Source: an uncultured bacterium (GTDB taxonomy: Bacteria > Bacteroidota > Ignavibacteria > Kapaibacteriales > UBA4661). From it: a DNA stretch of 64,000 bases. The position numbers and the translations under genes are program-made. Below the pieces are notes generated by a model. It was not told where the DNA came from, ran no database searches, and was given only the letters and a program-made list of their open reading frames with translations. Positions 8,621 through 53,362 of the stretch are shown here, piece by piece (the stretch's first letter is position 1; every line of letters begins with the position of its first letter). The stretch spans positions 2,339 through 66,338 of the forward strand of contig CALCNX010000034.1 of NCBI GenBank assembly GCA_937899715.1, read 5' to 3'.

Positions 8621-9262
8621 TTAAAACCCAATACGAACAAATGCACCAAAAGTAATGGCGAACGCAAAAGGACGTATTATTGGAAGATCTAATGAAAGAA
8701 ATTCATCTGTTGCAAAAGGTGAAGTAAAGCCTTGTCCTTGTAAACGCAATGTAATATCAAGATTTCTAGTAACGGGAACAACATAATCAACTAGTAAGTT
8801 AGCCCCGACTGCATAATCGGCAACATATCTTATTGTTGCATTTTGAGCAAATGGATTCTGTGCGTCAACCGCATATATTGATGATAGTTGTCGCAAAGAT
8901 ACTCCTCCTCCGCATCGTAATTTTTGCTCGGCAGAGCCACTAAGGTTGAATATCAAGTTACTGCTCCCTGTAACACTATGAAAAAGCCTTTTTCTTCCTA
9001 TTGGTCCATCAATCATATAACTATTCCCAAGAAAATTAATGCTTCCTTCAATCTGAAGGATTTCAGATAATTTTCTCTCGTAAAGCATTGAAAATTGTAT
9101 GCCTAGTTTATCAAAAAGCACATCACTATAAGCATAATGAAGCCCAAAACCAAGCTGATTTTCCTTAACTATTGTTGGGTGCGCCCTAACTAGAGAAACA
9201 GTCGTTAATGAAAATATTGATACAAAAATCAATGCTGAAAGACAAGTGTATATGGAATTCAT
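8621..9262 (-). CDS. outer-membrane beta-barrel protein (small porin/OmpW-like architecture)
   Basis: Signal peptide from MNSIYTCLSALIFVSIFSL. Alternating hydrophobic pattern and a terminal aromatic residue (GAFVRIGF). The start is ambiguous: ATG ending 9262 or 9310, while the ORF track start at 9346 is a non-ATG codon. Confidence 0.6.
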   Translation of the reverse strand: MNSIYTCLSALIFVSIFSLTTVSLVRAHPTIVKENQLGFGLHYAYSDVLFDKLGIQFSMLYERKLSEILQIEGSINFLGNSYMIDGPIGRKRLFHSVTGSSNLIFNLSGSAEQKLRCGGGVSLRQLSSIYAVDAQNPFAQNATIRYVADYAVGANLLVDYVVPVTRNLDITLRLQGQGFTSPFATDEFLSLDLPIIRPFAFAITFGAFVRIGF

Positions 9263-9578
9263 AGAAGGAGCTATAAAACTGAGCGTATCAGAAATTTTGA
9301 GAGATGACATAGGCGTAAGTATAAATTGAAATTTCAAAATAATCACAACAAAACGGACTTTGTTGCACGAATATTTATTGTTTGAACATTTTAATTTTCA
9401 ATGTTTTAAACAAAAATTAAAAATTCGTTTACATCTCAACTTCTTTGCGAATCAAGACTGGATATAGGGGTTGCAGATTTTGAAAATTTTTCTAACAACA
9501 CCCCTGTAAGCTATTTTAAAAATTTGCTTTAGAGGCAAGTTATACGCATACAACAACGTCGCAAAAAAGCAGTGATTT

Positions 9579-10283
9579 TTACAATCGCACTCTCAAAAAA
9601 GCACCAATGCTTGCTGAGGCACGCCCCCAATCACTATATTCATGGGTAAAACCAATGAAGGGCAAGGCAAACTGATGGTATTGCAGGCGAGCAATACATT
9701 CGGTATGCTCATTAACCAACAACTGATATTCAAGTTTGGCATTTCCGCCCAGTGCCCAATTATTATAATAATTGGCAAAAATATGTGTACTGTTTGAACC
9801 ATTCACCAAGGATTCAAGACTCGTTATTATAGCAGTAGAATTTCGCAAAGATGAGCCAATGCCAAAAGAAAAATTCTTCAAAATCCCTTCTTGAACCTTA
9901 TATACCCAAGTAGCATCAACTGTCCATGAAGTTTGGACTGCCATTGTACCGACACCGTTTAGCAACAACCCGGAATTAAAAATTCTACCCGCAAGATAAT
10001 GAAGCGCGAGTTCAAGACCGTGTTCCTTCGTAAAAATACGACCATAAAGAGCGGAAATCATCGGTTCAGGGCGACCAAATGAGGCATCACCAGCAGCATA
10101 ACTAATACCTATACCGACATAACCATACTGGCAGGTACTATCACTTAGAATAACTTTGCTCTCCTCTCGGATATTTTCCAGATTGATATTATTTGATTGT
10201 ATATTTTCTTGTGCATTTATTTGGGTAGAAACACCTATGAATAAGAAGCCGACACAGATTAGTTTTTCAATTCTACTTATCAT
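9579..10283 (-). CDS. outer-membrane beta-barrel protein, paralog-like of the 8621 gene
   Basis: Signal peptide MISRIEKLICVGFLFIGVSTQINAQ. Beta-strand-like alternation. C-terminus IGAFLRVRL matches the GAFxRx motif of its neighbour. Confidence 0.6.
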   Translation of the reverse strand: MISRIEKLICVGFLFIGVSTQINAQENIQSNNINLENIREESKVILSDSTCQYGYVGIGISYAAGDASFGRPEPMISALYGRIFTKEHGLELALHYLAGRIFNSGLLLNGVGTMAVQTSWTVDATWVYKVQEGILKNFSFGIGSSLRNSTAIITSLESLVNGSNSTHIFANYYNNWALGGNAKLEYQLLVNEHTECIARLQYHQFALPFIGFTHEYSDWGRASASIGAFLRVRL

Positions 10284-10387
10284 TTTAGATCCTTTAAATT
10301 AAAGCCCATTCTTCCGGTTCGTTGAGTTTATTGAACCTTGAATTCAAATTCAGTTAAACCGAAAAAATGGGCATCTCTAAATCTGAG

Positions 10388-11665
10388 TTATAGGAAAGTG
10401 TATTCTGCTGCTAAAACTTTTCCCCACTGACCTAATCCAAACGTACCGAGATTGAACTGCAAATCTGTATTTAATCCTGTATTTGTAAACGCCGAAAAGC
10501 CATGCTGTCCTTGATGATCATCAAATCCATCTAAACCATCATCCTCATAGTATACAAACCACAAAGTTTGACTGTAAAATCCTTGATAATAGTTGTTCGA
10601 GTTCACAGAATGGAGGTTATAAGGAGTCCCTAAAGTGAAGCGTAATGTACCCGATGTTTGATCCGTACTTCCCACAAAATAAGTCCCTCCCTGTCGAGTC
10701 AGCAAATCACTTCCAACCTGGGCATTCCAGAGAGCGATGTAATAACGATACTCATATTCTGGTCCCCCATCCCAAGGTAACTCATCATGAGCAAGATCTG
10801 TAAATTCCACCCACTGAACCCTGACCATATCAAAGCCCTGCCCCTGATTGGTTAAACGTCCGCCTTTCTTGGGAGTTTGATTAAGTAAATTGATTTCTGC
10901 TTTAGAGGCGTTTTTTTCGATACTGCTGTTGGAAGATTTTGCAATAACATTTACTTTGGTCTTGCCACTAATTTCACTACGCTCATTGACCGCAACTACC
11001 AGTATCGGGCGCTTCTTCGCAAGTTCACCCTTACGATCAAGCTCAAAACGATTTCCTTTGCTATCAAATGCAGGAATACTTTGACGTGTATCAGGGTCAA
11101 CATCCCACGGTACAAATGCTACAAGTGGCGTGGCTTTCTTATCCCACGTTGAGGGATACATCCAGAAAAGATGTAACGGCGCATTGACCAATTTTTCAAA
11201 CTTCTTGATAGCAGCATCCACATTCCCAACACCTTTGACAATCGTATTTTTGCGCCCCTTGCTTACAAGGTCATCAATACGCTTATTCCAGCCGCCTTTT
11301 GAACGAACGTCACCGTCGCTCTCAAGCTGTTGCCAGAGTACATTTGTCTCGCCGTCGAATTTCTCCATGCACTTCGCATAGATACGGTCACGAAGAGATT
11401 TATCTTCCACTGCCACGGCAACCGCTTCGGCGATTTCTTCCAGCCCGGCAGACATTTCTTTCACTTGCGGCTTCGCAAGAAACTCTCGCTTTTGCGCTTC
11501 ACGATCATCTGCCGTCAGTTCACTAGTCTGCATACCTTTACCTACGCTGACATTAGCTGTTTCCGCTTCGGGCGCAATCGTTTTTGCGACTTGCCCGGCT
11601 TCATTACAAGCCACCGCCAAACCACTCATCACAACACCAAATGCGAAGGCTTTTGCCGCCTTCAT
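10388..11665 (-). CDS. hypothetical lipoprotein
   Basis: Start set at ATG ending 11665 (MKAAKAFAFGVVMSGLAVAC, lipobox-like LAVAC). No catalytic motif recognised. Confidence 0.6.
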   Translation of the reverse strand: MKAAKAFAFGVVMSGLAVACNEAGQVAKTIAPEAETANVSVGKGMQTSELTADDREAQKREFLAKPQVKEMSAGLEEIAEAVAVAVEDKSLRDRIYAKCMEKFDGETNVLWQQLESDGDVRSKGGWNKRIDDLVSKGRKNTIVKGVGNVDAAIKKFEKLVNAPLHLFWMYPSTWDKKATPLVAFVPWDVDPDTRQSIPAFDSKGNRFELDRKGELAKKRPILVVAVNERSEISGKTKVNVIAKSSNSSIEKNASKAEINLLNQTPKKGGRLTNQGQGFDMVRVQWVEFTDLAHDELPWDGGPEYEYRYYIALWNAQVGSDLLTRQGGTYFVGSTDQTSGTLRFTLGTPYNLHSVNSNNYYQGFYSQTLWFVYYEDDGLDGFDDHQGQHGFSAFTNTGLNTDLQFNLGTFGLGQWGKVLAAEYTFL

Positions 11666-18287: not shown

Positions 18288-18468
18288 AGTAGTTACACAT
18301 ACACCTTGCTTGCAACTCCTACCCATACTTCTCCGTCATTGCGAAAGACACGTAAATTGTGTAGTTTCGTACTTTAGTTAGTAGATGACGCGCAAACGAT
18401 ATGTTTGCCCGATCCCCAAGCATTTCTTCTTCACCAACGCATTTCGCTCTCCCTTATTTTTCACTGCC

Positions 18469-21400
18469 ATGACCAACGCTCAATCTCTCTACGACCGCAT
18501 TATTGCTCGTCTCCGCGCCGTCCGCTCGAAGGAATTGACGCTTTCGCTTACCTCCGGCTTGTTTATGGCGGGGGCGTGTTCGCTGGCACTCTTGCTTGTG
18601 CTGACAGGAATAGAAGCACTTGCTTATTCCGGCATTGCTTCCCGAACAACAATGGCTGCTGTGTGGCTTCTGGGAACTCTTGCAGCGCTCGGCGTATTTG
18701 CAGGTACACCACTTATGCGGCTCATGGGGATTCAGCCCAAAGACAGCGACGACACGATGGCGCTTCGCATAGGACACTTTTACGATGATGTGCAAGACAA
18801 GCTCCTGAACGCACTTCAACTCTACCGCTCCAGCACAGCACAAAGTATGTTTTCCAGCGAATTGGCTTTGGCAAATTTTGGTGCCGTTGGCGCACGAGCA
18901 GAAACGCTTGATTTCGAGGCAATTTTAGACAAAAAGCCCCGCAAGACTGCGCTGATGCTCTTTCTGGGCGTAGCACTCATAACAGCAATAACCTTTGCTA
19001 TTGCGCCCAATGTGATGGGTTCGGCGCTCTACCGCTTGAGCCATTTTCGGCAATCTTTTATTCCGCCCGCGCCCTTTATGCTGGTCTTAGAGCCTGTGCA
19101 GCAAAAAGTCTTGCGCGGCGCGACGGTAGAAATTCGCGTCCGAGCGGCGCAGAATCCCGAAGCGAACAAATATGCACCGCCCACAGAAATCATGCTTCGC
19201 CTTCGTGAAAAACTAGACGGCGCTTCGGGCGACGAAACTTTTGATTCCTTCACGCTCCGCCCTGATTCTACGGGAGTATTTCGCTTCCAAGTTCCGTCGG
19301 TAAAGCGTAGCGTAGAAATGTACGCTGAAGTGGCTTGGTATCTGGATTTCGTGCGCTCAGAGCGCGGCGCAATTACGGTCTTCGACCGTCCCGATATTCG
19401 TGGGCTTTCCGGCAGCGTTACGCCGCCCGCTTATACCAAAACTCCGCCCCGCAGCCTTGATGAAAACTCGGCTTCGGTGATGTCGCTTATTGGTTCGCGT
19501 GTCGAACTGACGGCGCTTTCCAATAAGCCTCTGAAATCCGCAGAAATCGTACTCTTGAAAAACTCTGCAAGCGGCGATTCTACCAAACGTGATACCGTGC
19601 GTGTTCCCCTGAAGACCAGTGACCGCCGCGCATCGGGCGCTTTTTCCGTGAATTTTTCGGGTGAGTATTTCTTGCGTATCGTGGACGAAAACGGTGAGGA
19701 AAATGCCGACCCGATTCGCTATTCCGTGCTTGCACTCAAGGATGCACCGCCCTCCATCACGCTTTTGCAACCGACCGCCGATGTGGAATTGACCGAACGC
19801 GGCTTGCTCCCTATCAAAACAGCCATTGCGGATGATTATGGATTTTCGGCGCTGAAACTGCACTATCGCCGCACTGAATCGCGCTATTCACCGCCGCAGG
19901 AGAAATTTTCGCAGATTTCGCTTGGCTTTATGGGCAGCGAAAAGTCGTTGGAAGTGCCGTATATCTGGGATTTGAATAAAGTTGGTCTTGCGCCCTCGGA
20001 CAAATATGAATTTTTCCTTGAAGTAACGGATAACGACGTTGTTACGGGTCCAAAGTCTGCCCGCACCAACACTATTTCGGTTCGCTTGCCTTCGCTGGAT
20101 GAAATTTTCAAAGAGGCAGACAAGACGCAAGAAATCGCGGCAAAGGACTTGCAAAAAGTGCTCAAAGATGCCGAAACGATGAAGCGCGACATGGAAGAAA
20201 TTTCCCGCGAACTCCGCAAGCAGCAAGAAAAGCCGCAAGCGGACTGGAAAGAGAAAAAACGTCTGGAAGATATGCTCAAGAAGCAAGACGATATGCAAAA
20301 GCGCGTCGAAAGTGTGCAGAAGCAACTTGAGGACATGACCCAAAAACTTCAGCAAAACCAAAGCATTTCGCCCGAAACCATGCAGCAATACATGGAAGTC
20401 CAAAAACTTCTCAAGCAGGTAAACGTACCCGAAATGCAAAAAGCGATGCAGCAAATGCAAAAGGCGCTCGACCAGATGCAGCCGGAGCAGCTTCAGCAGG
20501 CATTGCAAAAATTTCAGTTCAACGAGGAAGATTTCAAGAAGTCTATTGAGCGGACGATGAAAATTCTGAAGCGGGTGCAAGCAAATCAAAAATCGGACGA
20601 ACTTGCCAAACGCGCGAAGGAGCTTGATGAGCAGCAACGCGACCTCGAAAAGCAAATGGACAACGCCAACATGAATGACCAGCAAAAGCGTGAGGAAATG
20701 GCGGAAAAACAAGAGCGCCTGAAAGAAGATATGCAAAACCTCAGCAAAGAGACCGAAGACCTTGAAAAATTGATGAAGGATATTCAGGAAAAAGGCGGCA
20801 AAGATATGCCGATGGAGGAGATGAAAAAGGCTCAGGAAGCGCTTCAGAAGGAAGAAACCGAAAAGGCAATGCAAGACGCAAAAGAGCAGATGAAACAAGG
20901 CAACCAGCAGCAAGCAAAGCAGCAACAGCAAAAAGCGCAGCAAAACTTGCAGAAATTCGCCCAGCAAATGCAGAATCTCAAAAAAGAAATGCAGCGCAAT
21001 ATCCAGCAAGAAGCGATTAAGCAGCTTCAGAAGTCCACACAGAATATGCTGGAACTCTCCAAGCGCCAAGAGCAACTCAAGCAGCAAAGCCAAAATATGG
21101 ACTACAATTCCACCCAGTTCCGCGATGCCGCTCAAGACCAAGCAAATGCGCTGCAAGACCTGAAAAATGTGATTAGTCGAATGTCGGAACTGGCGCAAAA
21201 ATCGTTTGCCGTTACACCCGAAATGGGAAAAGAACTCGGCGAGGCAATGCAGCAAATGGAAAATGCTACACAAAGCCTGGAAGACCGCAATGCCCAGCAA
21301 GCCGGACAGCAGCAAGGTGGCGCAATGTCTGCCATGAACCGAGCCGCAGCGCAAATGCAAGCTATGCTGGGGCAGATGCAGCAAGGCAACGGACCCGGAG

Positions 21401-22029
21401 GCGGACAGCAGCCGGGCGAGAACGGCGAGGGTATGGGGCAAGGCAGTGGCTCAAGTTTCATGGAACGCCTTCAGCAAGCCGCCGGACAACAACAAATGCT
21501 TAATCAGGCTATGCAACAAATGATGCAGGGTCAGCAGCAAGGGCAGGGTCAACAAGGACAAGGGCAGCAGCGCTTGGGACAGCCCGGAGGTGAGGAATCG
21601 GGGCGCATGGCAGCACAGCAAGAGGCAATTCGTAAATCGCTGGAAGACCTTGCCAAAGACCAAAAAGGCGGCAAACGCGCACTTGGCGACCTCGACAAAA
21701 TGGCAAAAGAAATGCAGGAAATCATCAGCGATATGAAAAGCGGGAATATTTCGGAGGAGACCATTCGCCGACAGGAGAAGATTTTGTCGCGTCTGCTGGA
21801 CGCAAGCCGCTCCACACGCGAACAAGATTTTGAGAAGCAACGTGAGGCAAAATCAGGACAGAATTTCACCCGCACAAGTCCTGCGACGCTGGATATGCGT
21901 ACCCAAGAAGGACGTACCCGCGCCCTGCAAGAATTATTACGCTCCACGCAACAAGGCTACACAAAAGACTACGAGGCGCTCATTCGGCGGTACTTCGAGG
22001 CGTTGCAGAAGGTAGAGCAGAAGAATTGA
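18469..22029 (+). CDS. DUF4175-like membrane protein with very long K/E/Q-rich coiled-coil region
   Basis: Start at ATG 18469. N-terminal hydrophobic helices. A coiled-coil/low-complexity tract of several hundred residues (...QQGQGQQGQGQQ...). C-terminal ILSRLLDASRS...YEALIRRYFEAL as recalled for DUF4175 proteins. Confidence 0.55.
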   Translation: MTNAQSLYDRIIARLRAVRSKELTLSLTSGLFMAGACSLALLLVLTGIEALAYSGIASRTTMAAVWLLGTLAALGVFAGTPLMRLMGIQPKDSDDTMALRIGHFYDDVQDKLLNALQLYRSSTAQSMFSSELALANFGAVGARAETLDFEAILDKKPRKTALMLFLGVALITAITFAIAPNVMGSALYRLSHFRQSFIPPAPFMLVLEPVQQKVLRGATVEIRVRAAQNPEANKYAPPTEIMLRLREKLDGASGDETFDSFTLRPDSTGVFRFQVPSVKRSVEMYAEVAWYLDFVRSERGAITVFDRPDIRGLSGSVTPPAYTKTPPRSLDENSASVMSLIGSRVELTALSNKPLKSAEIVLLKNSASGDSTKRDTVRVPLKTSDRRASGAFSVNFSGEYFLRIVDENGEENADPIRYSVLALKDAPPSITLLQPTADVELTERGLLPIKTAIADDYGFSALKLHYRRTESRYSPPQEKFSQISLGFMGSEKSLEVPYIWDLNKVGLAPSDKYEFFLEVTDNDVVTGPKSARTNTISVRLPSLDEIFKEADKTQEIAAKDLQKVLKDAETMKRDMEEISRELRKQQEKPQADWKEKKRLEDMLKKQDDMQKRVESVQKQLEDMTQKLQQNQSISPETMQQYMEVQKLLKQVNVPEMQKAMQQMQKALDQMQPEQLQQALQKFQFNEEDFKKSIERTMKILKRVQANQKSDELAKRAKELDEQQRDLEKQMDNANMNDQQKREEMAEKQERLKEDMQNLSKETEDLEKLMKDIQEKGGKDMPMEEMKKAQEALQKEETEKAMQDAKEQMKQGNQQQAKQQQQKAQQNLQKFAQQMQNLKKEMQRNIQQEAIKQLQKSTQNMLELSKRQEQLKQQSQNMDYNSTQFRDAAQDQANALQDLKNVISRMSELAQKSFAVTPEMGKELGEAMQQMENATQSLEDRNAQQAGQQQGGAMSAMNRAAAQMQAMLGQMQQGNGPGGGQQPGENGEGMGQGSGSSFMERLQQAAGQQQMLNQAMQQMMQGQQQGQGQQGQGQQRLGQPGGEESGRMAAQQEAIRKSLEDLAKDQKGGKRALGDLDKMAKEMQEIISDMKSGNISEETIRRQEKILSRLLDASRSTREQDFEKQREAKSGQNFTRTSPATLDMRTQEGRTRALQELLRSTQQGYTKDYEALIRRYFEALQKVEQKN

Positions 22030-23986: not shown

Positions 23987-24862
23987 CTATTGTCCGCCTT
24001 CTTCTGCAAAGAAGGCAACAATAGCTGCTGCATCAACGGGGGGATTTAGAAGCCATTCAGTTTGAGCATCGAAATCGTCAACTGCTGATAATTTTTCTAG
24101 CATTGAAGGAATAATTAATGCTAGTTTTTTACGCCCCTGCCTGATTTGTTCTTCATTAAAGGATTGTTGTGCTTGATTTGAAGTTGTATTAACTGACACG
24201 CCTATGTCTATCAATTTTTTATCTTTTAAATATTGTGTTAATGTAAAAAGTTCTTTTGAACGTTTTGCTCGTGCAAATGATGTGTTATAGGACTTTAGAC
24301 ATTTTACAGAAGCTGTTGTTAATTGATCTTTATTCCAAACACCTTGCATCTTTGGCAGCATTTGTGCCATTAAAGACACTTCTCGGAAATTTTGGTAACG
24401 ATACAAGATATCCATATAATACTTCATTGCAATTAGCGCTTCTCCTTTGGGCTCAAGGCGAATAAAAAAGCTGCGCAACATGCTCGAAGAGACTTCTTGT
24501 TCAATTCCAAAAGCAAACGGATGATCATGAAATTCTTCTAAAATTTTCTGTGCTATTTGGTGAGCCTGTTGCCAAGAAGGAGCATTTGCAATTTGACGAA
24601 TAGACGATTGATATTTTATCTGACCTTCGCCCATACTTGCTTCTAGTTTTTTATATTGTTCGATTGTCATACCCTGTGGCAATGTTGGGGAAGCCGTTGC
24701 CCAAAAAAGACCTGTTTTTAGATACTTTAATGGCTGTGCAATCGGAATGTCGGCAATGCTTGTATTAGTACTGTTATGTGTTACAGTACATGAATTTAAG
24801 AAGGCAACAGTTATGAACACAAGACTACTGCTAAGACCTATTATTATTTTGTTTTTAGACAT
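23987..24862 (-). CDS. hypothetical lipoprotein (AT-rich gene)
   Basis: MSKNKIIIGLSSSLVFITVAFLNSC lipobox. No recognisable domain. Locally about 35% G+C by hand count (28 of 80 at 24101-24180). Confidence 0.55.
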   Translation of the reverse strand: MSKNKIIIGLSSSLVFITVAFLNSCTVTHNSTNTSIADIPIAQPLKYLKTGLFWATASPTLPQGMTIEQYKKLEASMGEGQIKYQSSIRQIANAPSWQQAHQIAQKILEEFHDHPFAFGIEQEVSSSMLRSFFIRLEPKGEALIAMKYYMDILYRYQNFREVSLMAQMLPKMQGVWNKDQLTTASVKCLKSYNTSFARAKRSKELFTLTQYLKDKKLIDIGVSVNTTSNQAQQSFNEEQIRQGRKKLALIIPSMLEKLSAVDDFDAQTEWLLNPPVDAAAIVAFFAEEGGQ

Positions 24863-25054
24863 ATTTTAAAGTGATAATGTGTTGTTAGTTTAATTTTGAA
24901 GAACTGAGAAGTTGTTTAAAAAATTTTGTATTTCGATACGCTGATCTACCCAGACCTAATCTTTAAAAACTATGTCTGAGCGGTTTCCACAAAAATGTTA
25001 AACAAAAAAATTCTTACTTACAAAATTAGAAGGTTATGCAATTAATGAGCGAAA

Positions 25055-26185: not shown

Positions 26186-27880
26186 TTATCCGCACCGCAG
26201 CACCAGCATCGTAATATCATCCGACTGTGGAGCACTTCCGGCGTGTGTCTGCACGTCGCGTGTGATGCTTTCCACAATCTCCTGCGCACTTCCCCCAGAG
26301 CACGCTTTCAGTGATGCTTCCAAGCGCTCTTCGGTAAATTCTTCATTCTCGACACTCAGTGCTTCCGACACGCCATCGGTGTAGAGAAGCAGTACGTCGC
26401 CACATTCCAACGGCACGGTTTTTTCTTCGTAGGGCACAAGCGTTTCCATAATGCCAAGTATTAACCCGCCTTCGATAAGACGCTCGAATGTTCCATTCCT
26501 GCGAAGCAGAAGCGGCGGATTGTGTCCCGCATTGGTGAAGGTAAACGTCTTGTCGCGGGCGTTTAGTCTCCCACAGAAAAACGTAACAAATTTGTCGTCA
26601 CTGGTGTTGCCGTAAAGAAGGTCATTGATACGGCTCACCATCGAGGGAAGCGGTAAATTGAGCGGGGCAAGCGCTCGGAGTGCCGCTTGCGTGTTTGCCA
26701 TGAGAAGCGCAGCCGGCGTACCTTTGCCCGACACATCGGCGATGACCAGCATCCACTCGTCATTTTCAAGGGGAATTACGTCGTAATAATCGCCGCCGAT
26801 TTGCTTTGAAGAAACACTCATACCCGTAATATCAAAGCCCTCAATCGGCGGAAGTTCTTGTGGGAGCAAGCCTTTCTGAATCGTGCGGGCAAGATTCAGT
26901 TCGTCCTCCAAACGCTTCTTTTCCAATTCTTCATGGAAAAGTCGGGCGTTCTCCAATGCCGTCATAGCTGTACCACCAAGCGCTTCCAAGAAATTTTGTT
27001 CCTCGGCTGTGAAGGGCTTCTTATTCATTTTTTCTCCCACGAGCAAAAGACCCTTGGTCTCATTTTGCGTTTTCATGGGAGCAACAAGTACGCAATCATG
27101 AACAAATTCCGAACACCGCTCCAATGCTTGTTCGCCCTGTTCTTTGAACTCATTGACAAGAGCCTGTGCCTGCTCCGGCGTGATTTTGAGACGATTTACG
27201 GGAATGTCAAACTCTGCTCCGCCCTCTTGTCCCTTGACCAAGACCGCAAAGCGGCTCACAGCCAACTGCCCCATCAGACGCAGCGTAAGAAACTTCAGGA
27301 TTTCTTCTTTTTGCAAAAGTGCCGTGAACTCGCGGTTAATCTCGAAGAGCGTTGTCAAAAGCTGATTCTTGCGCTCCAGATACGAACCTGTTTCACGGAG
27401 AGAACGAATATTGCGGGCATTCAAGAGCGCATTAGCCGTGATGCTGCCCACAAGCGAGATATACTGTCGCTCTTCGTCGTTGTAGGGAACATTTGCCAGA
27501 TTCGCCCCAAAGCACAGCATTGCCAGATAGCCCGCTTCGCTGTCAGCACTGCTCATCACGGGCTGACAAAGCTCACCGCCAAATGCTTTCAAGAAAGGAT
27601 GCTCCATCGCACCAAAATCATCATTCGGCACTGATTCTTCGGGCAAAAGCAGAAACGGCTCGGCAGGCGATTTCATACCCTTCGTTGTCACGCATCGCCA
27701 TTCATATTCCCTTACGCCAGTCGGCATGAGTGCACAGGCTTTGAACGTGCGCAGTTTGCCCATGACACTAAGAAGCGCCGTGTTCAAGATAAAAATCTCG
27801 TCGTCCGATGCGTTCAGCGCAGCACTGAGGTCAATCAGCGATTGAAGATTGATGAGATTTGATGTACTTGCGCCCGTCAT
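26186..27880 (-). CDS. PP2C-type (SpoIIE/RsbU family) serine phosphatase with GAF-like N-terminal sensor region
   Basis: GGDYYDVIPLENDEWMLVIADVSGKGTPAALLMA and LLYTDGVSEA motifs of SpoIIE-type phosphatases. The ~330-aa N-terminal region is GAF-like. Confidence 0.8.
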   Translation of the reverse strand: MTGASTSNLINLQSLIDLSAALNASDDEIFILNTALLSVMGKLRTFKACALMPTGVREYEWRCVTTKGMKSPAEPFLLLPEESVPNDDFGAMEHPFLKAFGGELCQPVMSSADSEAGYLAMLCFGANLANVPYNDEERQYISLVGSITANALLNARNIRSLRETGSYLERKNQLLTTLFEINREFTALLQKEEILKFLTLRLMGQLAVSRFAVLVKGQEGGAEFDIPVNRLKITPEQAQALVNEFKEQGEQALERCSEFVHDCVLVAPMKTQNETKGLLLVGEKMNKKPFTAEEQNFLEALGGTAMTALENARLFHEELEKKRLEDELNLARTIQKGLLPQELPPIEGFDITGMSVSSKQIGGDYYDVIPLENDEWMLVIADVSGKGTPAALLMANTQAALRALAPLNLPLPSMVSRINDLLYGNTSDDKFVTFFCGRLNARDKTFTFTNAGHNPPLLLRRNGTFERLIEGGLILGIMETLVPYEEKTVPLECGDVLLLYTDGVSEALSVENEEFTEERLEASLKACSGGSAQEIVESITRDVQTHAGSAPQSDDITMLVLRCG

Positions 27881-27927: not shown

Positions 27928-29295
27928 TTATTTCGCCAATTCTTCGTAAAAGAATGCCGAAGCGCTAATGCCGCGATAAAAGTTTTTCAACGTGAAGTGT
28001 TCATCCGGCGAGTGTAGGTTTTCCGTATTCAAGCCCATACCCATCAGCACCACAGGCGCGTTCAGGATATTTTGAAAGAGTAGCACAATCGGAATGGAAC
28101 CACCCTCGCGTGTCAAAAGCGGCTTTTTGCCAAAGGCTCTCTCCATTGCGCGGAGAGCTGCTTTTACGCCTTTGCTGTCAATCGGCGTAATAGCAGGGTT
28201 TCCACCGTGCAAGTTTGTAACTTCTACGTGAACCGTTGGCGGCGCAATGCGGCGAACATACGCCTCAAATTTTTTTGCAATGTCGTCAGTATTTTGATTT
28301 GGAACGAGACGCATCGAAATTTTAGCAGAAGCCTTCGCCGGAAGCACCGTTTTTGCGCCCTCCCCTGTGAAACCGCCCCAAATGCCATTCACGTCCAATG
28401 TCGGACGGGCAGAGGTTTTTTCGAGTGTGTTATATCCAAATTCGCCGTCGGTGGCGGGAATGTTGAGTTCTTTGCAGTATTGCGCTTCATCGTGCGGTAA
28501 TTGCGCGTATTCTCTCCGCTCCTCATGCGTGAGTGGAAGCACATCGTCGTAAAAGCCCGGAATGGTGATGCGCCCGTAATCATCTATGAGCTTTGTAATG
28601 ATGCTTGCAAGCGCATTCGCAGGATTCGCCACCGCACCGCCAAATACGCCAGAATGAAGGTCACGATTGGGTCCGGTAACAGTTACTTCCATGTAGGAAA
28701 GCCCACGCAGCCCGTAGCAAAGCGACGGCACTTCATCGGCAAACATAGCAGTATCGGAAATAAGCACAGTGTCGGCAGCAAGCATTTGCGCGTGTTTGCG
28801 CAAGAATTCCTCCAAGTGTACGCTCCCAATTTCTTCTTCCCCTTCGATTAACACTTTGACGTTCACGGGCAATTTTCCATTGGTTTTCAAGTGCGCTTCG
28901 ATGCTTTTCAACTGCATAAAGACTTGCCCCTTGTCATCCACTGCGCCCCGTGCGAAAATTTTCCCGTCGCGGACAGTCGGCTCAAAAGGAGCGCTTGTCC
29001 AGAGGTGGAGCGGGTCAACGGGCTGCACGTCATAGTGCCCATAAAAAAGCACCGTCGGCGCATCCTTTCCGGCGTGAAGATGTTCACCATAAACGACAGG
29101 ATGCCCTTCGGTGGGAAAAATTTGGATATTTTCCAAACCGATAGATTTCATGCTGCCCGCGACCCACTCGGCGCAACGCACTATATCGCCCTTCCGCTCC
29201 GGGTCAGTGCTGATGCTAGGAATTCGCAGAAAATCTTTTAATTCTTCAAGATAGATTGATTGATTATTTTCGATGTACGCCAGAAGATTGGTCAT
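27928..29295 (-). CDS. M20-family dipeptidase
   Basis: FYGHYDVQPVDP...ARGAVDDKGQ and EGEEEIGS metal-ligand motifs of the peptidase M20 (ArgE/DapE/PepV) family, 455 aa. Confidence 0.85.
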   Translation of the reverse strand: MTNLLAYIENNQSIYLEELKDFLRIPSISTDPERKGDIVRCAEWVAGSMKSIGLENIQIFPTEGHPVVYGEHLHAGKDAPTVLFYGHYDVQPVDPLHLWTSAPFEPTVRDGKIFARGAVDDKGQVFMQLKSIEAHLKTNGKLPVNVKVLIEGEEEIGSVHLEEFLRKHAQMLAADTVLISDTAMFADEVPSLCYGLRGLSYMEVTVTGPNRDLHSGVFGGAVANPANALASIITKLIDDYGRITIPGFYDDVLPLTHEERREYAQLPHDEAQYCKELNIPATDGEFGYNTLEKTSARPTLDVNGIWGGFTGEGAKTVLPAKASAKISMRLVPNQNTDDIAKKFEAYVRRIAPPTVHVEVTNLHGGNPAITPIDSKGVKAALRAMERAFGKKPLLTREGGSIPIVLLFQNILNAPVVLMGMGLNTENLHSPDEHFTLKNFYRGISASAFFYEELAK

Positions 29296-29320
29296 AAACG
29301 CATCCTTGAGAGAGTAAAAA

Positions 29321-29753
29321 TGTGGTAAAAAGAAAATCTTGTGGAAAAGTATGTGTAAAGAGGGAAATCTTGTGGAAAACTTCGGCTCTTTTCTTCGTTG
29401 TATTAAATATCACCAAAGCCCGTTATAATGCCACTTTCAAACACACAAGAAAATACAAAATAGCGTCAAGTATGGTAATAACCAAGATGACTTTTCCACG
29501 CCGTGATTTTTTAGCAAAGTTTTCCACACACTTTCCCCGTATGTGCAAAACTACCGTGAAAAATGAGAGGACAGTCACGGGAAAAGCCATTACCACATTA
29601 TCCACATATCCACAATATTTCATACTTTCCCCCAAGTGTGTTTAGAATCATAGAATTTTGCAGAACTTATCCAGTGTGTAGAATGTTGTGGATAATATCG
29701 TTCAGCCAAGAACTGAAGCAACTTCAGAACAATCTAAACAGTTGTTTTCCACT
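29321..29753. other. DnaA-box cluster (candidate oriC or DnaA-control locus)
   Basis: Perfect boxes: TTATCCACA at 29598-29606 and TGTGGATAA at 29687-29695. One-mismatch boxes at 29340-29348, 29371-29379, 29520-29528 and 29606-29614. Two-mismatch boxes at 29321-29329, 29492-29500, 29667-29675 and 29745-29753. Confidence 0.6.
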
Positions 29754-30039
29754 TTTCCCCATTCTTATCGGTGGACTTTAGAAAATATTCAACTCTTCTT
29801 CAAGAATAAGAAAGATACCGCCATATCGTAGATTGTGCTTGACGAAAGTGCAAAGGAAAATAGAAACACTAATATTTCGGAAGGAACGAGATTTTTGAAA
29901 ATTTGATAACGACAAACGAGAGTTTTTCCGTAAATTCAAGGTTTGCCGCTTTTCTTCATTGTCCAAGAATTTCGCTGTGAATACCACGCCTACAAGCACC
30001 ACCACTGCCGAAGTATCATCACCAGTCGTCTTGTCTCCG

Positions 30040-32838
30040 ATGGACGTACTTTCTACCCCTTCACCACGCCGCACAATAGCTGTGCGTGGCGCGAGGCAGC
30101 ACAATCTCAAGAATGTTTCGATTGACCTTCCGCGTAACAAACTCATCGTCGTGACGGGCGTGAGCGGTTCCGGGAAGTCATCACTGGCATTCGACACCAT
30201 CTATGCCGAGGGGCAGCGCCGCTTTGTGGAATCGCTCTCTGCATATGCGCGGCAGTTTTTGGAGCGCATGAACAAACCGGATGTGGATGTTATCACCGGA
30301 ATTCCCCCCGCTATTGCGATTCAGCAAAAGACGATTTCCCGTAATCCTCGCTCGACCGTTGGCACCACAACCGAAGTCTATGATTATATGCGACTTCTCT
30401 GGGGACGTATTGGCGAGACGTATTGCAATGTCTCCGGCAAGCGTGTTCGCAAAGACACGCCTGAATCAGCTTTAGCAGACATTCGTTCCGCCACACAGAA
30501 TGATGAACGGGTGTATATCCTTTTTCCGCTTCAGAACCACGACCAACACTCGCTTCAAGACGAAATTGAGAACATCAAGCAGCAGGGTTTTTTTCGTGTG
30601 GTGCTGAAAAATGACGATACGATTCTCGACCTGAATACGGACACTCTTCCACCGAAAACGCTCAAGAGTGATGTTTTTGTGCTTGTTGACCGCATTATTT
30701 TTCGAGATGATGCCGACGTTCAAACGCGCCTGAACGATTCGTTGGAGCTCTCTTTCGTGCAAGGTGCGGGGCGCTGCGTGGTGCGGAATATCACCACCAA
30801 AACCGACCTCAAATTTAGCAATATCTACGAATGTGCCACAAGCGGTATCGTTTATGACGAGCCGCAGCCACGCCTTTTCTCCTTCAATAATCCGCTTGGT
30901 GCTTGCCCAACGTGCGAAGGCTTTGGGCGCACAATGGGTATTGATGAAGATTTGGTGATTCCCAATAAACAAAAATCTCTTGCTGATGGCGCAGTGCAGC
31001 CTTTCCAAACTCCTACAAATATCAAATACCAAGAGACGCTTCTGGCTGAAGGAAATAAACGCGGAATCAATCTGGATGTGCCCGTAAGCAGTCTTTCTCC
31101 TGAGGATTTTGATTTTGTCTGGAATGGCGGTGGCAAGTTCGCAGGTGTGAAGGGTTTTTTCCGAATGGTCGAGGATAATTACCAGAAAATGCACTATCGG
31201 GTGCTGATGAGTCGTTATCGTGGCTACACACGCTGCCACGAATGCGGCGGTTCACGCCTGAAACTCTCGGCTCGGCAAACCTTTGTCGGCGGTAAGAATA
31301 TTCCCGCCGTCGTGAACATGACGCTTGAAGAAGCGGGCGATTTTTTCCAAAATTTGCAATTGAGTGATTTTCAAACCGCCATCGCAGAACGAATTTTGAA
31401 GGAGATTACCGTTCGTTTGGAGCTTCTAAACCGCATGGGACTTGGGTATTTGACGCTTGACCGCCTTGCTCATACGCTTTCGGGTGGTGAGGTGCAGCGT
31501 ATCAATCTTGCTACTTCTATTGGTTCTTCGCTCGTCGGAGCGCTCTATGTTCTTGACGAACCCAGTATTGGTCTGCATCCCAGAGACACCGACCGCATGA
31601 TAAGCGTTATGGAGCGCCTTCGGAATATGGGCAATACGGTGATTGTGGTCGAACACGACGAAGACATCATGCGCCGCGCTGATATGCTGGTGGATATGGG
31701 ACCTCGTGCCGGAGAACACGGCGGAGAAATTATTTTTCAAGGAACGCACGAAGAGATTTTGAGGCATGAGGAATCGCTGACAGGCAAGTATTTGTCAACT
31801 CGCCTCAGTATTCCCATTCCTAAAGCTCGCAATAAAGGCAATGGTAAGCACCTTACCGTCAAAGATGCGTACGAAAATAATTTGAAGCACATTGACGTAG
31901 AAATCCCACTCGGTGCAATGGTCGTGGTAACGGGTGTGAGCGGTTCGGGAAAATCCACGTTTGTCCATAGCGTGTTTTACAACGGGCTTTTGCGTAAACT
32001 TGGTCAGCCAGTACAGTCTGTGGGCAAGCATACGAACATTCTTGGTGTGGAGCAGATTCAGCACGTAGAAATGGTTGACCAATCACCCATTGGGAAATCG
32101 CCCCGCTCTACGCCTGCCACATACACCAAAGCATTCGATTATATCCGTGACCTCTTCGCTATGACGCAAGCCGCAAAACAGCTTGGTTGGAAAGCAGGTT
32201 CTTTCTCGTTCAACGTGCCGGGCGGGCGCTGCGAGACCTGTCAGGGCGACGGTATGGTCAAAATTGAAATGCAGTTTTTGGCAGATTTGTATCTTGAATG
32301 TGAGGACTGTAGAGGAACACGCTATAAAAAAGAAGCGCATGGCATCCATTGGCGTGGAAAATCCATCGTGGATGTACTCAGCATGACGATCGATGAGGCA
32401 GTCGAATTTTTTGTCGGTGAAGACCGCATTACTTCTCGCTTGGAGACCTTGCAAAAAGTCGGCTTGGGGTATATGCGCATGGGGCAGCCCGGCACAACGC
32501 TTTCCGGTGGTGAGGCGCAGCGCGTCAAGCTGGCATCGCACTTGCAGGAAAAATCAACGGAATCCACACTCTTTATTTTTGATGAACCCACCACAGGGCT
32601 TCATTTCGACGATATTGCCAAATTGATTTCCTGCTTTCAAGAACTGGTCGGGCGCGGTCATTCGCTGGTCATCGTGGAGCATAATACCGATGTGATGAAA
32701 TGCGCCGATTGGATTATTGATATGGGACCCGAAGCCGGAGCCGGTGGCGGTACTGTTGTCGCTGAAGGTACGCCGGAAGATGTAGCGCGAGTGGAAGCCT
32801 CGCACACAGGGCGATTTTTACGAGAGATTTTGAAGTGA
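30040..32838 (+). CDS. uvrA: excinuclease ABC subunit A
   Basis: [30 protein letters not shown], a second Walker [13 protein letters not shown], two LSGGE signatures, and zinc-finger CxxC pairs. Start placed at ATG 30040. Confidence 0.95.
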
Positions 32839-45998: not shown

Positions 45999-46013
45999 AG
46001 AAGGGAAGAAACA

Positions 46014-46619
46014 ATGAATGCTGTTTTGGAATACGAACTTGCTGAAGTGCAGGAAGAAAACATCAGAACACCTGCACCGAAACCACCCGAAAGCGTTGCG
46101 GAATATCTCGCCATGCCTGAAGGTGCGCCGTATTACCAGTTTATTAACGGAGAAGCAATTGAAATGCCTGCACCAATTCTTTTACATCAGCAAATTATTA
46201 CTAACCTTACCATCTATGTAGGCTTGTTTATCAAACAGCATAAACTTGGTATTCTTTACCCTGCTCCCATAGATGTTTATTTCACGGAAACCGACTATTT
46301 TCAGCCTGACCTTGTGTTTGTCTCAAACGAGCGAAGTGAAATACTTAAGAATCACAAGAACATTAAAGGCGCACCAGACCTTGTTGTCGAAGTTCTTTCG
46401 CCTTCCACTGGCTATTACGACCTTTCGCATAAAAAAACAGTCTATGAACAGGAAGGTGTCCGCGAATACTGGCTTGTGTATCCCGATGAATTACGGATTG
46501 AGGTTTTGCAAAATACCGATGATGGCTTTATTTTGTTGAACCAAGCGCGGAAGACAGGTACGGTGCGCTCCGCAGTTTTAGAAGGCTTTTCACTGGAAAT
46601 TGCAGAAATTTTTGAATAA
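46014..46619 (+). CDS. Uma2-family (DUF820) endonuclease
   Basis: FQPDLVFV...APDLVVEVLSPST...DLSHKKTVYEQEGVREYWLV pattern of PD-(D/E)xK Uma2 proteins. Confidence 0.75.
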   Translation: MNAVLEYELAEVQEENIRTPAPKPPESVAEYLAMPEGAPYYQFINGEAIEMPAPILLHQQIITNLTIYVGLFIKQHKLGILYPAPIDVYFTETDYFQPDLVFVSNERSEILKNHKNIKGAPDLVVEVLSPSTGYYDLSHKKTVYEQEGVREYWLVYPDELRIEVLQNTDDGFILLNQARKTGTVRSAVLEGFSLEIAEIFE

Positions 46620-46667
46620 TGCCGAAATACTCATTTCCTACTATTGTCATGCTGAGAAACCATATTC

Positions 46668-48158
46668 ATGCTACGACTCATTAGTGCAATAGTGCTTTGC
46701 TGCGGTAGTGCTGTGGTTTGCTTGCCACAACAACTTGCTGCACAAACTTCTACGACAACGGCGAATTTTAAGCCCTTGTCGAAGGGAACTGTTTTTTTGT
46801 ATTATCGTAGTTATTCTTCGAGTGATTATGGTGTTGAACATATAGGTCCTGGTCTGTACAGACCCACACAATCTTCCTACTCTTATAACGGGTATTATTA
46901 TAGCAAGGTTATTGGAGACACGCTTATAGCAGGACAGAAGTATGGAATTGTGTACTCTCCAAAGCAATTTGTTGATAATACTGGTGAACATTCTCCAACG
47001 ATCGAGTTTGTTTTAGAACGTTCTACGCCTACGAGCATTTACCAATATAAATCTAATAACGATGAATTGATATTTGATACGTCAGCAATGATGTATCCAT
47101 TGATATTTGAAGCATCCTCTGTGTCCTATCCATCGCCTTTGCCGGCAGGCGATTGTAGCGTTAATAGAACCGATAACACTATCAATTTTGCTTGTCAATA
47201 TTCGATTTCTCTTAATGATGCGATTCGTAACCAGACCACACAAACTAAGTCTGCGTCCTTCAAAAGCGGATATGGACTTTATCAACAAAGTTATGTGTAT
47301 TCTTGGGTTAAAATTGATTGGTTAGGAGGGTCTACCGTTGGTTTTGGTAGCAATGTTGAAGATCGGCTTCAATTTGTTGGTGCAATAAGTGATGGCAAAG
47401 TGTTAGGAGATAGCTTGATATTAGTTCTAAATACTGACAGCAATGTATTTGCAAAGGTAAATTTGTCTCTACCGCCAAACACGAGTACAACCGCTGGACA
47501 AGTTATTGAAATACCAATTACTCTTTCTGGATGGAAGAGATTTATTGAACTCACGGGTGTCAAAGCAAATTTATTGACAACGACGCTTTCTTTTAATGCT
47601 TCAATGCTAGAGCCTGTCGAAAACACACCAGTCGGCAGCGTTGCTAATGGCATACGCCGCATACCGCTATCATTTAATGTGAACCCTCAAAATGATAGTG
47701 CTATCGTCAGTTTACGCTTTAGGGTAGCAATTGGAAATAGTTCTCAAACCGACTTGGTTTTAGATACATTGCGTTCATCAAATAATGCTACTATTCGGCA
47801 AAAAACAACTAATGGTTCTTTCAAGCTACAAGGACTAAACTACGCTGGTAAATCGCCAGCACTTTTCTTTTCCCGTAAAGCTGCCGTAGCCTTGTCTGTA
47901 AAGCCAAATCCCGTTGCAGATAATTTGAATATTTCGTTTGTGCTTGACAAAGCCTCTGCAGTGGAACTTGTGCTGACAAGCGCCGACGGGCGACGTATTG
48001 CGAGCATGACAAGCAATATCCCAAGCGATGGTCTGCAGGAAGTCGTTTGGAATGCCAAAACGCAGAACGGAGGCACAATTTCTTCCGGCACATATTTTCT
48101 GCAACTGTTTGTTGACGGTCATTGCGCTGCGGAAACCTCGCTCATAAAAACGCGATAA
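46668..48158 (+). CDS. secreted protein with T9SS C-terminal sorting domain (AT-rich gene)
   Basis: Signal peptide. C-terminal LSVKPNPVADNLNISF...GTYFLQLFVDG resembles the T9SS type A sorting domain. Confidence 0.65.
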   Translation: MLRLISAIVLCCGSAVVCLPQQLAAQTSTTTANFKPLSKGTVFLYYRSYSSSDYGVEHIGPGLYRPTQSSYSYNGYYYSKVIGDTLIAGQKYGIVYSPKQFVDNTGEHSPTIEFVLERSTPTSIYQYKSNNDELIFDTSAMMYPLIFEASSVSYPSPLPAGDCSVNRTDNTINFACQYSISLNDAIRNQTTQTKSASFKSGYGLYQQSYVYSWVKIDWLGGSTVGFGSNVEDRLQFVGAISDGKVLGDSLILVLNTDSNVFAKVNLSLPPNTSTTAGQVIEIPITLSGWKRFIELTGVKANLLTTTLSFNASMLEPVENTPVGSVANGIRRIPLSFNVNPQNDSAIVSLRFRVAIGNSSQTDLVLDTLRSSNNATIRQKTTNGSFKLQGLNYAGKSPALFFSRKAAVALSVKPNPVADNLNISFVLDKASAVELVLTSADGRRIASMTSNIPSDGLQEVVWNAKTQNGGTISSGTYFLQLFVDGHCAAETSLIKTR

Positions 48159-48221: not shown

Positions 48222-50213
48222 ATGAAAACTCTCGTGTACCTGATTCCCGCATTGCCGCTTGTCGGCTTTGTTCTCTTAGGTTTTTTCGGCGCAAAGCTGA
48301 GTTATTTCGAGAAAGGTAAGACCATCGCCGGGACGCTTGCGAGCGCTATGGTTGGACTGCCGTTTCTTTTTGCTTGTATTTTGTTTGCGCAGATGACTTC
48401 CGGCACATTTCTGCCGCAGACTTTTACGCTCTTTACGTGGATTCATGCAGGCGATTTCTCCATTGACCTTGCGTACAAGGTTGACCAGCTCTCACTGCTT
48501 TTTACGCTGATTGTAACGGGTATCGGTTTTCTGATTCACGTGTATTCAATTGGCTACATGGCGCATGACGAAGGTTTCACGCGCTTTTTTGCTTATTTGA
48601 ATCTGTTCATTTTTATGATGCTCAATCTCGTCCTTGCCGACAACTACGTTGTGACGTTTTTGGGCTGGGAAGGCGTGGGGTTGTCATCGTTCTTACTGAT
48701 TGGCTTTTGGTACGACCGCGAATTTACGGGTACAAACATCGTCTGGACGGGCGATGCAGCAAAGAAGGCGTTTATCGTCAATCGCATCGGTGATTTCGGG
48801 ATGCTTATTGCAATGTTCATTCTCTACGTTCTTTTCGGTTCATTGCGTTTCGATGATGTAAATGCCTCAGCGATTGCTTCATCCATCAAAGGCGTGTTCC
48901 CAAGCGGTTCGGCGTACAGCACAGGCTTGATTACCGCCGTTGCGCTGTTGCTTTTCTTGGGTTGCACGGGCAAATCTGCACAAGCGCCACTTTTCGTCTG
49001 GTTGCCGGACGCTATGGCGGGTCCAACGCCTGTTTCGGCGCTTATCCACGCCGCGACGATGGTTACGTCGGGCATTTTCCTCATTGCCCGCACAGCACCA
49101 ATTTTCGCGCTCTCGCATGATGCCATGAATGTTGTGGCTATTGTCGGTGTCGTAACGGCGTTGCTTGCTGCCACGATGGGCTTAGTGCAAAATGATATTA
49201 AAAAAGTGCTCGCGTACTCGACCGTAAGCCAGCTTGGGTTTATGTTTGCCGCGCTTGGCGTTGGAGCATATACGGCGGCTGTTTTCCACGTGATGACACA
49301 CGCTTTCTTCAAAGCCTGCTTGTTCCTTGGCTCCGGCTCAGTCATTCATGGAATGCACGAAGAGCAAGACATTCAGAAAATGGGCGGTTTGTCGAAATAT
49401 ATGCCTATCACGCACCGCACATTTTTGATTGCTTCGATTGCCATTGCCGGAATTTTCCCGTTTGCGGGCTTTTTCTCCAAAGATGAAATTTTGTGGAATG
49501 TCTTTGAGCACGGCTCGCCCGTAATGTGGTTAGCGCTGGCTGTGGCAGCGTTCTGCACGGCATTCTATATGTTCCGCCTTGTCCATCTCACCTTTAGCGG
49601 CGAAGAGCGCTTTGATGCCCACCATGTTCATCCGCACGAGTCGCCTGCTACGATGACCGTGCCGCTTATTATTTTAGCGGTGTTGTCGGTCGTGGGTGGT
49701 TTTCTGGGTGTGCCTCATGCGCTTGGAGCGCCCATGCACGTCGGGAATTGGATTGAGCATTGGTTAGCACCTGTGCTGGAGCCTGCGCACAAAGTCTTAG
49801 CGCGAGGCGAAGGGGGTGAAATTTATGCTATTGAATATGTTCTCATGGCGGTATCGCTCGGCATTGCTATTGTTGGTATTTTGCTGGCTGGTGCTTGGTA
49901 TCGCAAGGCATCGGGAGCACCGGATTCATTTGCAAACCGCATGAAAGGCTTGTACAATCTCGTCTGGAACAAATACTTTATTGACGAAGTCTATTACGGC
50001 TTGATTGTCAATCCACTCCACAAAGTCGCCGATGTAGTCTTCTGGAAAGGTGCGGAAACCTACGGCATAGATAATGTGGTCAACCGTTCTGGTTCAGTCG
50101 TAACGGCGCTTTCGGAGCTGTTTCGCCGTATGCAATCGGGCATTGTGCAGAATTACGCCTTGCTGCTGGTTGTGGGAATTGTGGCTGTTATGGCATGGCT
50201 CTTGCTAGCGTAA
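48222..50213 (+). CDS. nuoL: NADH-quinone oxidoreductase subunit L
   Basis: LIPALPLVGFVLLGFFG N-terminus. The antiporter-like core WEGVGLSSFLLIGFW is present. C-terminal HESPATMTVPLIILAVLSVVGG and a NuoL-sized extension, 663 aa. Confidence 0.88.
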   Translation: MKTLVYLIPALPLVGFVLLGFFGAKLSYFEKGKTIAGTLASAMVGLPFLFACILFAQMTSGTFLPQTFTLFTWIHAGDFSIDLAYKVDQLSLLFTLIVTGIGFLIHVYSIGYMAHDEGFTRFFAYLNLFIFMMLNLVLADNYVVTFLGWEGVGLSSFLLIGFWYDREFTGTNIVWTGDAAKKAFIVNRIGDFGMLIAMFILYVLFGSLRFDDVNASAIASSIKGVFPSGSAYSTGLITAVALLLFLGCTGKSAQAPLFVWLPDAMAGPTPVSALIHAATMVTSGIFLIARTAPIFALSHDAMNVVAIVGVVTALLAATMGLVQNDIKKVLAYSTVSQLGFMFAALGVGAYTAAVFHVMTHAFFKACLFLGSGSVIHGMHEEQDIQKMGGLSKYMPITHRTFLIASIAIAGIFPFAGFFSKDEILWNVFEHGSPVMWLALAVAAFCTAFYMFRLVHLTFSGEERFDAHHVHPHESPATMTVPLIILAVLSVVGGFLGVPHALGAPMHVGNWIEHWLAPVLEPAHKVLARGEGGEIYAIEYVLMAVSLGIAIVGILLAGAWYRKASGAPDSFANRMKGLYNLVWNKYFIDEVYYGLIVNPLHKVADVVFWKGAETYGIDNVVNRSGSVVTALSELFRRMQSGIVQNYALLLVVGIVAVMAWLLLA

Positions 50214-53352: not shown

Positions 53353-53362
53353 GGTTTTCGTT

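Follow-up and report, generated by a model that had tools for sequence, protein, structure and literature searches.

What is the role of a 744-bp gap that is crowded with DnaA-box-like words and located between two divergent genes in the chromosome of an uncultured bacterium? The gap (positions 29296-30039) lies in a 64-kb stretch of DNA, here referred to as the window, whose nearest genomes are metagenome-assembled genomes (MAGs) of Kapaibacteria and Ignavibacteria, with Candidatus Kapaibacteriota being placed under Bacteroidota by NCBI. It separates a gene for an M20-family dipeptidase, designated here as M20 (27928-29295, minus strand), from uvrA (30040-32838, plus strand), and an initial annotation proposed it as a candidate replication origin or DnaA-control locus. 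The first of these proposals is supported by a switch in GC skew that is independent of gene strand, by the absence of comparable clusters elsewhere and by conserved box positions and orientations, indicating that the gap is very probably the chromosomal origin of replication (oriC) of a Kapaibacteria-type bacterium (Bacteroidota/Ignavibacteria branch).

The window was scanned on both strands for the DnaA box TTATCCACA, with mismatches being counted per 9-mer. Both perfect boxes of the window, at 29598-29606 (plus strand) and 29687-29695 (minus strand), were found inside the gap, together with four boxes carrying a single mismatch (29340 and 29371 on the minus strand, 29520 and 29606 on the plus strand) and eight carrying two (29321, 29492, 29542, 29667, 29675, 29745, 29753 and 29976). 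The coordinates and sequences given by the initial annotation for perfect and one-mismatch sites were all reproduced, and its count of at least four two-mismatch sites is accommodated by the eight identified here. Boxes with at most one mismatch occur at 29 sites in the window, whereas dinucleotide shuffles yielded 12.9 on average and 24 at most, and six of the 29 are confined to the 356 bp from 29340 to 29695, where ~0.07 are expected (Poisson P ~2e-10), a background which agrees with the chance expectation previously estimated by hand.

Box density was expressed as a score (4, 2 and 0.5 points for each box with 0, 1 and 2 mismatches, respectively, summed over 500 bp), which reached 19.5 for the gap as compared with 6.5 for the best 500-bp window starting outside ~29.05-29.65 kb. 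Among unrelated controls, the score peaked at 8.5 across 80 uvrA loci of relatives (~1.6 Mb) and at 6 across 78 M20 loci that are more distantly related, and the highest non-orthologous score in any further locus was 11. By either measure, the cluster thus stands well above background, as is expected of an oriC. Equally dense clusters, the commonness of which was envisaged by the initial annotation as an argument against an origin, were found neither elsewhere in the window nor in ~2.4 Mb of related DNA, in which only the orthologous gaps match the box density observed here. The score of 11 belongs to a small secondary cluster in a related lineage (L171, positions 6313-6352), where a 94-bp spacer between genes for a SpoIIE-type phosphatase and a thiamine pyrophosphokinase holds three DnaA boxes of the same orientation, including two perfect ones, within 40 bp, at a distance of ~3 kb from the main cluster of that lineage; this is possibly a control site.

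GC skew, which the initial annotation had suggested as a check, was determined across the window and revealed a switch of origin polarity at the gap. In 1-kb bins, the cumulative skew declines as far as 30-31 kb (per-base minimum at 30911) and rises thereafter. A two-segment fit yielded a left-hand value of -0.050 and a right-hand value of +0.034 (z = 7.3), a contrast that was never reached when 1-kb blocks were permuted 2000 times. The maximum-likelihood breakpoint was placed at 31050, with a 2-log-likelihood support interval of 29800-31400 and a 3-log interval of 29200-31650, and the gap represents the sole non-coding DNA within the latter, the remainder being coding sequence of M20 and uvrA. 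When genes were separated by strand, the skew was shown to shift from -0.024 to +0.044 for plus-strand genes and from -0.082 to +0.001 for minus-strand genes, with third codon positions shifting in the same direction; since the shift is seen in both strand classes, it is not an effect of gene orientation. The change from minus to plus is of the origin type, and, rightward of the gap, ~74% of the coding length is on the plus strand, in line with the earlier remark that genes on this side are mostly so oriented, and is thereby co-oriented with a rightward fork. To the left, ~51% is on the minus strand, indicating no strand bias on that side.

Relatives of this locus were gathered via the M20 peptidase by means of a metagenome scan, a protein search and contig look-ups. 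A dense box cluster was found directly upstream of the M20 orthologue in five further lineages, namely L169 (M20 identity of 91%, density score of 16), L168 (87%, 19), L084 (84%, 19.5), L171 (78%, 15.5) and L085 (78%, 16.5). A column-wise census of boxes in two alignments (A2 and A3) identified ten box positions that are common, in the same orientation, to at least three of five lineages (29340 and 29371 on the minus strand, 29492, 29520 and 29531 on the plus strand, 29542 on the minus strand, and 29626, 29667, 29745 and 29753 on the plus strand). Across the lineages, spacers diverge while boxes are kept, to the extent that only pieces carrying boxes still align between L085 and the window. 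The majority fraction was 0.855 for box columns as opposed to 0.658 for the remaining columns (Mann-Whitney P = 5e-16), a difference to be read with caution as the alignments anchor on such words. The cluster is thus conserved at an orthologous place, as is expected of an oriC. The strongest sites are not the most persistent: the two perfect boxes of the window and the abutting one-mismatch box are restricted to the window lineage, and two perfect boxes are present in L084 at the sites of boxes A and H' (described below) and in L085 at the sites designated 182 and F.

The GC skew of the relatives was assessed in loci of 7-21 kb. In all five loci with a cluster, the skew is lower to the left than to the right of the gap, and in L171 it switches at the gap from -0.044 to +0.069 (z = 5.3; among 56 control loci, z did not exceed 4.8), with the cumulative minimum located 0.6 kb from the gap. 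No negative-to-positive switch was observed in L164 and L166, two lineages whose M20 loci are without a cluster.

The boxes, about 10-14 over ~420 bp, are arranged in two outward-facing groups, of which one is formed by two minus-strand boxes at the peptidase end and the other by a longer plus-strand series ending in a tandem pair. Boxes A (29340-29348) and B (29371-29379), both TTTTCCACA with one mismatch on the minus strand, are each common to four of five lineages; box A keeps its column and orientation in these four and can be recognised in all six lineages in alignment A3. Both are embedded in a 31-nt direct repeat (repeat families D1/D2), 45-84 bp from the M20 start codon. Their start-to-start spacing is 31 nt in the window, and L084 and L171 have a spacing of 30-31 nt. 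Box C (TTTTCCACG, two mismatches, 29492-29500, plus strand) is common to three of five lineages and box D (TTTTCCACA, one mismatch, 29520-29528, plus strand) to four. Box D is followed by a weak position (29531-29539, plus strand) that constitutes a box in three relatives and a perfect one in L168, and by box E (TTTTGCACA, two mismatches, 29542-29550, minus strand), common to three of five lineages. The perfect TTATCCACA at 29598 and the one-mismatch ATATCCACA form a plus-strand tandem with a one-base overlap (29598-29614), which was recorded at those columns in one of five lineages, as was the perfect minus-strand box at 29687-29695. By comparison, box G (TTATCCAGT, two mismatches, 29667-29675, plus strand) is represented by a box at the same column and in the same orientation in all five.

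The plus-strand series is terminated by boxes H and H' (TTTTCCACT and TTTTCCCCA, 29745-29761), a tandem pair with an 8-nt offset that is directed at the right flank of the gap. Box H was found in five of five lineages and H' in four; the pair could be aligned in all six lineages (A3), across which it represents the best-conserved block of the gap. Its distance from the M20 start is 408-450 nt in five lineages and 485 nt in L171, where the frame used takes in 30 nt of M20 coding sequence.

A further conserved element of 37 nt (ACAAAATAGCGTCAAGTATGGTAATAACCAAGATGAC, 29456-29492) contains no DnaA box. It is present as a single copy in the window and near-invariant in four lineages, with an 18-nt core that is exact in L168 and L169 and with the core AATAACCAAGATGA being kept in L171. 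Among the five lineages keeping it, no other part of the origin gap is as well conserved as this element (core GGTAATAACCAAGATGAC). No known Rfam RNA family was matched by the element, which may serve as the M20 promoter or be bound by another factor.

The gap has a G+C content of 37.9%, compared with 47.2% for the window, contains many short internal repeats and is free of called genes on same-species contigs. The promoters of both divergent genes are probably located in it as well, although a scan for sigma-70-type promoters and terminators was uninformative (two promoter-like sites as compared with 2.3 expected). A structured RNA was rejected as an explanation, as no Rfam family reached its gathering score anywhere in the gap and searching in E-value mode yielded two chance-level matches to eukaryotic families. 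The 107-aa open reading frame (ORF) at 29322-29645, previously suspected to be an artefact, was likewise rejected as a gene: it has no Pfam match, is uncalled on same-species contigs, is absent from L085 and carries no coding signature, with similarity to L084 being limited to a conserved DNA block of 44 codons in which mismatches are spread evenly over the codon positions (12/13/10).

The location at which an origin of this layout would open can be approached from box orientation. In studied origins, as exemplified by the segment from box R1 to the DNA unwinding element (DUE) of Escherichia coli, the box 5'-TTATCCACA-3' is directed at the unwinding site. The description of the basal unwinding system (BUS) of Bacillus subtilis is consistent with this direction (PMC8287927). 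By this orientation rule, unwinding is expected to the right of position 29761. The segment at 29776-29825 is the second least stable 50-mer of the gap, nearly tied with the first (29858-29907), and the equivalent segment, starting 2-22 nt past the tandem pair, ranks first in L169, L168 and L084 and second in L085; a local stability minimum following the pair was found in all five lineages examined. The core of the unwinding element is thus likely to be located at ~29776-29825, possibly reaching ~29910, a placement modelled on known DnaA-dependent origins. The initial annotation had also regarded the right flank as a plausible unwinding element, on account of AT-richness. Its value of one-third G+C for 29761-29940 is exact (60 of 180) and hardly departs from that of the box region (37.7%) or of the gap as a whole, and the placement is plausible given box orientation and the conserved stability minimum. 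However, the flank was rejected as a compositionally outstanding unwinding element, since many less stable spacers are present in the window. Repeats of the 13-mer type were not found in the flank of the window; the equivalent flank of L171 carries two copies of CATATATGCTTA.

By analogy with DnaA-dependent origins of known behaviour, DnaA would bind the array of boxes, and a DnaA oligomer assembled on the plus-strand series would open the easily melted DNA beyond the tandem pair. Helicase would be loaded at the opened site, from which forks would depart in both directions.

Among the flanking genes, the dipeptidase gene (Pfam PF01546 and PF07687) is the conserved neighbour of the cluster, whereas uvrA, which encodes UvrA domains according to Pfam and measures 932 aa on same-species contigs, is its neighbour in the window lineage only. 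The divergence of the two genes, as described in the initial annotation, was confirmed by their coordinates, and three same-species metagenome contigs place the uvrA start at 30040 with nothing called in the gap. Since two independent same-species assemblies (L081 and L082) span M20, the gap and uvrA, this junction is not an assembly chimera. Beyond these neighbours, a GAF/SpoIIE phosphatase gene is located past M20 and a PIG-L-domain gene past uvrA. The initial annotation had placed the cluster with uvrA, but it is M20 to which the cluster is linked: a conserved uvrA upstream element was rejected, as the cluster was present at none of the 80 uvrA loci of relatives. On its far side, the cluster is instead followed by an 88-aa ORF and the yceI, ffh and rpsP genes in L169, and by genes for a 7TM-HD receptor in L084, a histidine kinase in L168, a metallophosphatase in L171 and a DUF3108 protein in L085.

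Lineages with an M20 identity of 78-91% are collinear only across M20 and the adjoining part of the gap. A 9-kb block of L169 (11389-20839) corresponds to window positions 50886-60033; in the window it is separated from the gap by 21 kb on the right, and in L169 it is placed tail-to-tail with M20. Similarly, L171 4582-6303 corresponds to window positions 26186-27880, with the SpoIIE phosphatase gene of L171 lying on the other side of the cluster than in the window. In L173 (5337-11362), uvrA and M20 are close to each other as they are in the window, but are co-oriented, with 1.8 kb and no DnaA-box cluster between them, an arrangement unlike that of the window. A break in synteny at the cluster was dropped as evidence for an origin, as the other side of M20 is reshuffled too.

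Elsewhere in the window, an extreme AT skew (0.39-0.47) at 20-22 kb is due to a 1214-aa DUF4175 protein (18385-22029) with a coiled-coil-like stretch of ~450 residues rich in Gln, Glu and Lys. A 92-nt tRNA-Gly with anticodon ACC, predicted by ARAGORN at 49007-49098 (minus strand), lies antisense within the ORF of a NuoL-like antiporter subunit (48222-50213) and is probably a false positive. Stretches of low G+C content (35-41%; 9000-11000, 24000-25000 and 46000-48000), which carry ORFs without a Pfam match (8621-9346, 9579-10283, 23987-24862 and 46668-48158) and a gene for a Uma2-family endonuclease (46014-46619), may represent recently acquired DNA.

Several observations weigh against the assignment of the gap as oriC. 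The best-fit skew breakpoint falls inside uvrA, ~1 kb rightward of the boxes, and the boxes lie within the 3-log support interval and outside the 2-log interval; moreover, the analysis covers 64 kb of the replicon, a scale beneath that of a global skew extreme and of genome-wide uniqueness of the cluster. In the four cluster loci other than that of L171, the skew shifts in the same direction with z values of 1.7-3.3, which are individually non-significant. The putative unwinding segment is not exceptional, corresponding to the 98th percentile, with at least 12 less stable places being present elsewhere in the window. DnaA-trios, by the BUS rule a run of three or more NAN triplets located 0-16 nt past a box (PMC8287927), do not form an array at any conserved box, including the tandem pair, and are not conserved among relatives; the rule is passed by one of the 14 boxes of the window, an unconserved two-mismatch box at 29976, and by ~36% of arbitrary positions. 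As stated in the initial annotation, the window contains neither dnaA nor dnaN: a Pfam search of 37 ORFs detected no dnaA, dnaN, parAB or mnmG, and tblastn with an E. coli DnaA sequence gave no dnaA match in the window or in the loci of relatives examined. Neither dnaA nor dnaN is thus present within 29-34 kb on either side of the gap, and a usual origin-neighbour gene, which is frequent beside oriC without defining it, is not adjacent in the window. By contrast, the predicted origin of the cultured relative Melioribacter roseus is located in a 303-bp spacer between these two genes (PMC3534657). Furthermore, a cluster beside M20 is missing in L164, L166 and L172 (M20 identity of 77-78%), from which it follows that the linkage of M20 and cluster is confined to a subclade; L173 (M20 identity of 70%) also has no cluster beside M20, and in all four lineages M20 is found in a different gene context.

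Some of these observations bear on the alternative that the gap is a DnaA-controlling locus near the origin, resembling datA, DARS (DnaA-reactivating sequence) or an origin-proximal cluster of B. subtilis, with the true oriC being located outside the window or too degenerate to recognise, which we consider quite improbable. Such loci are intergenic DnaA-box clusters, with datA serving titration and DnaA-ATP hydrolysis and DARS serving reactivation through ADP release from DnaA, activities dependent on IHF/Fis, and the gap is likewise an intergenic group of boxes. The lack of dnaA and dnaN in the window, when set beside the predicted initiation between them in M. roseus (PMC3534657), would suit this alternative. 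The same applies to the lack of a convincing unwinding element or DnaA-trio array and to the existence of small secondary clusters in the clade, such as L171 6313-6352. However, datA and DARS are small and located off the skew switch, whereas the gap is found at the switch as the sole non-coding DNA of the support interval, and the switch is repeated at the orthologous gap of a second lineage (L171). Its boxes, in opposed groups, form a larger and more organised array than those of datA or DARS, and the window contains no other cluster of equal density. The initial annotation had drawn a parallel with the DARS element located upstream of uvrB in E. coli (DARS1), yet this parallel, in which linkage to a uvr promoter would not be a defining feature, finds no support in relatives, where the cluster is found at none of the uvrA loci and its far-side neighbour is never uvrA. 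Both datA and DARS are known only from enterobacteria.

DnaA is also a transcription factor, and the gap could in principle be a DnaA-regulated promoter region for M20, uvrA or both, with a skew switch nearby by coincidence. The position of the cluster directly upstream of M20 in six lineages, with boxes A and B close to the start codon, would be compatible with such a role, and the conserved 37-nt block could be a promoter or operator. This explanation is nonetheless still less probable than a control locus, as no boxes accompany M20 outside the subclade (scores of at most 6 in the 78 distant loci, and none in L164, L166, L172 and L173) or uvrA orthologues, at least ten boxes over 420 bp far exceed known DnaA operators, and the skew switch in two lineages is left unexplained. 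Regulation of M20 by origin-bound DnaA would, moreover, be compatible with an origin and is no true alternative to it. Finally, a compositional artefact, by which an A/T-rich spacer accumulates TTNTCCACA-like words, or a small gene or RNA that escaped recognition, might be suspected from the low G+C content of the gap, its 107-aa ORF and its many short internal repeats. This is effectively refuted by the improbability of the ≤1-mismatch boxes under a Poisson model, by the distance from all controls in ~2.4 Mb, by the retention of boxes between diverging spacers and by the failure of the ORF and of Rfam searches to indicate a gene or RNA.

When compared with known systems, the assignment of the gap as oriC finds structural parallels in E. 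coli, whose origin is likewise unlinked to dnaA and shares the orientation of its terminal box R1 towards the DUE. The two have in common a division into two outward-facing groups, a mixture of stronger and weaker sites and easily melted DNA outside the terminal box. In contrast to E. coli oriC, the gap is without 13-mer repeats, clustering of GATC or identifiable IHF and Fis sites, its box region is longer, and a tandem pair with an 8-nt offset occupies the DUE-facing end. Resemblance to the B. subtilis BUS is limited to a conserved, co-oriented tandem pair on the unwinding side, directed at the least stable DNA and present here in six lineages, whereas the defining three or more NAN triplets within 16 nt are missing at the conserved pair of the window (PMC8287927). 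It is conceivable, although rather unlikely, that the gap is an origin with an unwinding or control module unlike these two studied models, having the strictly conserved tandem pair but neither DnaA-trios nor 13-mer repeats, and carrying the 37-nt element in addition. Better conserved than most boxes among the five lineages that keep it, the 37-nt element could then be bound by an origin-binding factor specific to the lineage, or act as a promoter, embedded in the origin, that couples M20 transcription to initiation.

Within the wider phylum, M. roseus, which belongs to a related, deeply branching part of the Bacteroidota/Chlorobiota group, had its origin assigned from a skew transition and DnaA boxes (PMC3534657); in contrast to that origin, the gap is beside neither dnaA nor dnaN. 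Predicted origins of Bacteroidetes are commonly located far from dnaA, as described for such a locus in Prevotella intermedia (PMC4755523). The gap shares with the Bacteroidota oriC predictions of the DoriC/Ori-Finder type its E. coli-type boxes (TTATCCACA and TTTTCCACA variants), its intergenic location at a skew switch and its remoteness from dnaA, and differs from them in being flanked by an M20 peptidase gene and uvrA and in having been identified from 64 kb as opposed to a whole replicon. Among the papers listed by a literature search on this lineage and on origins, neither a mention of Kapaibacteria nor a description of a Kapaibacteria-like origin was found. The origin is not adjacent to dnaA and, because dnaA-remote origins are already known to be common in the phylum, it represents an ordinary find, leaving the understanding of replication initiation unchanged. 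For this uncultured Kapaibacteria-like lineage, it provides a well-supported oriC position, by which genome orientation, replichore analysis and coverage-based growth rates (peak-to-trough ratio) can be anchored, and the six aligned origins reveal which weak boxes persist while the strongest boxes shift position.

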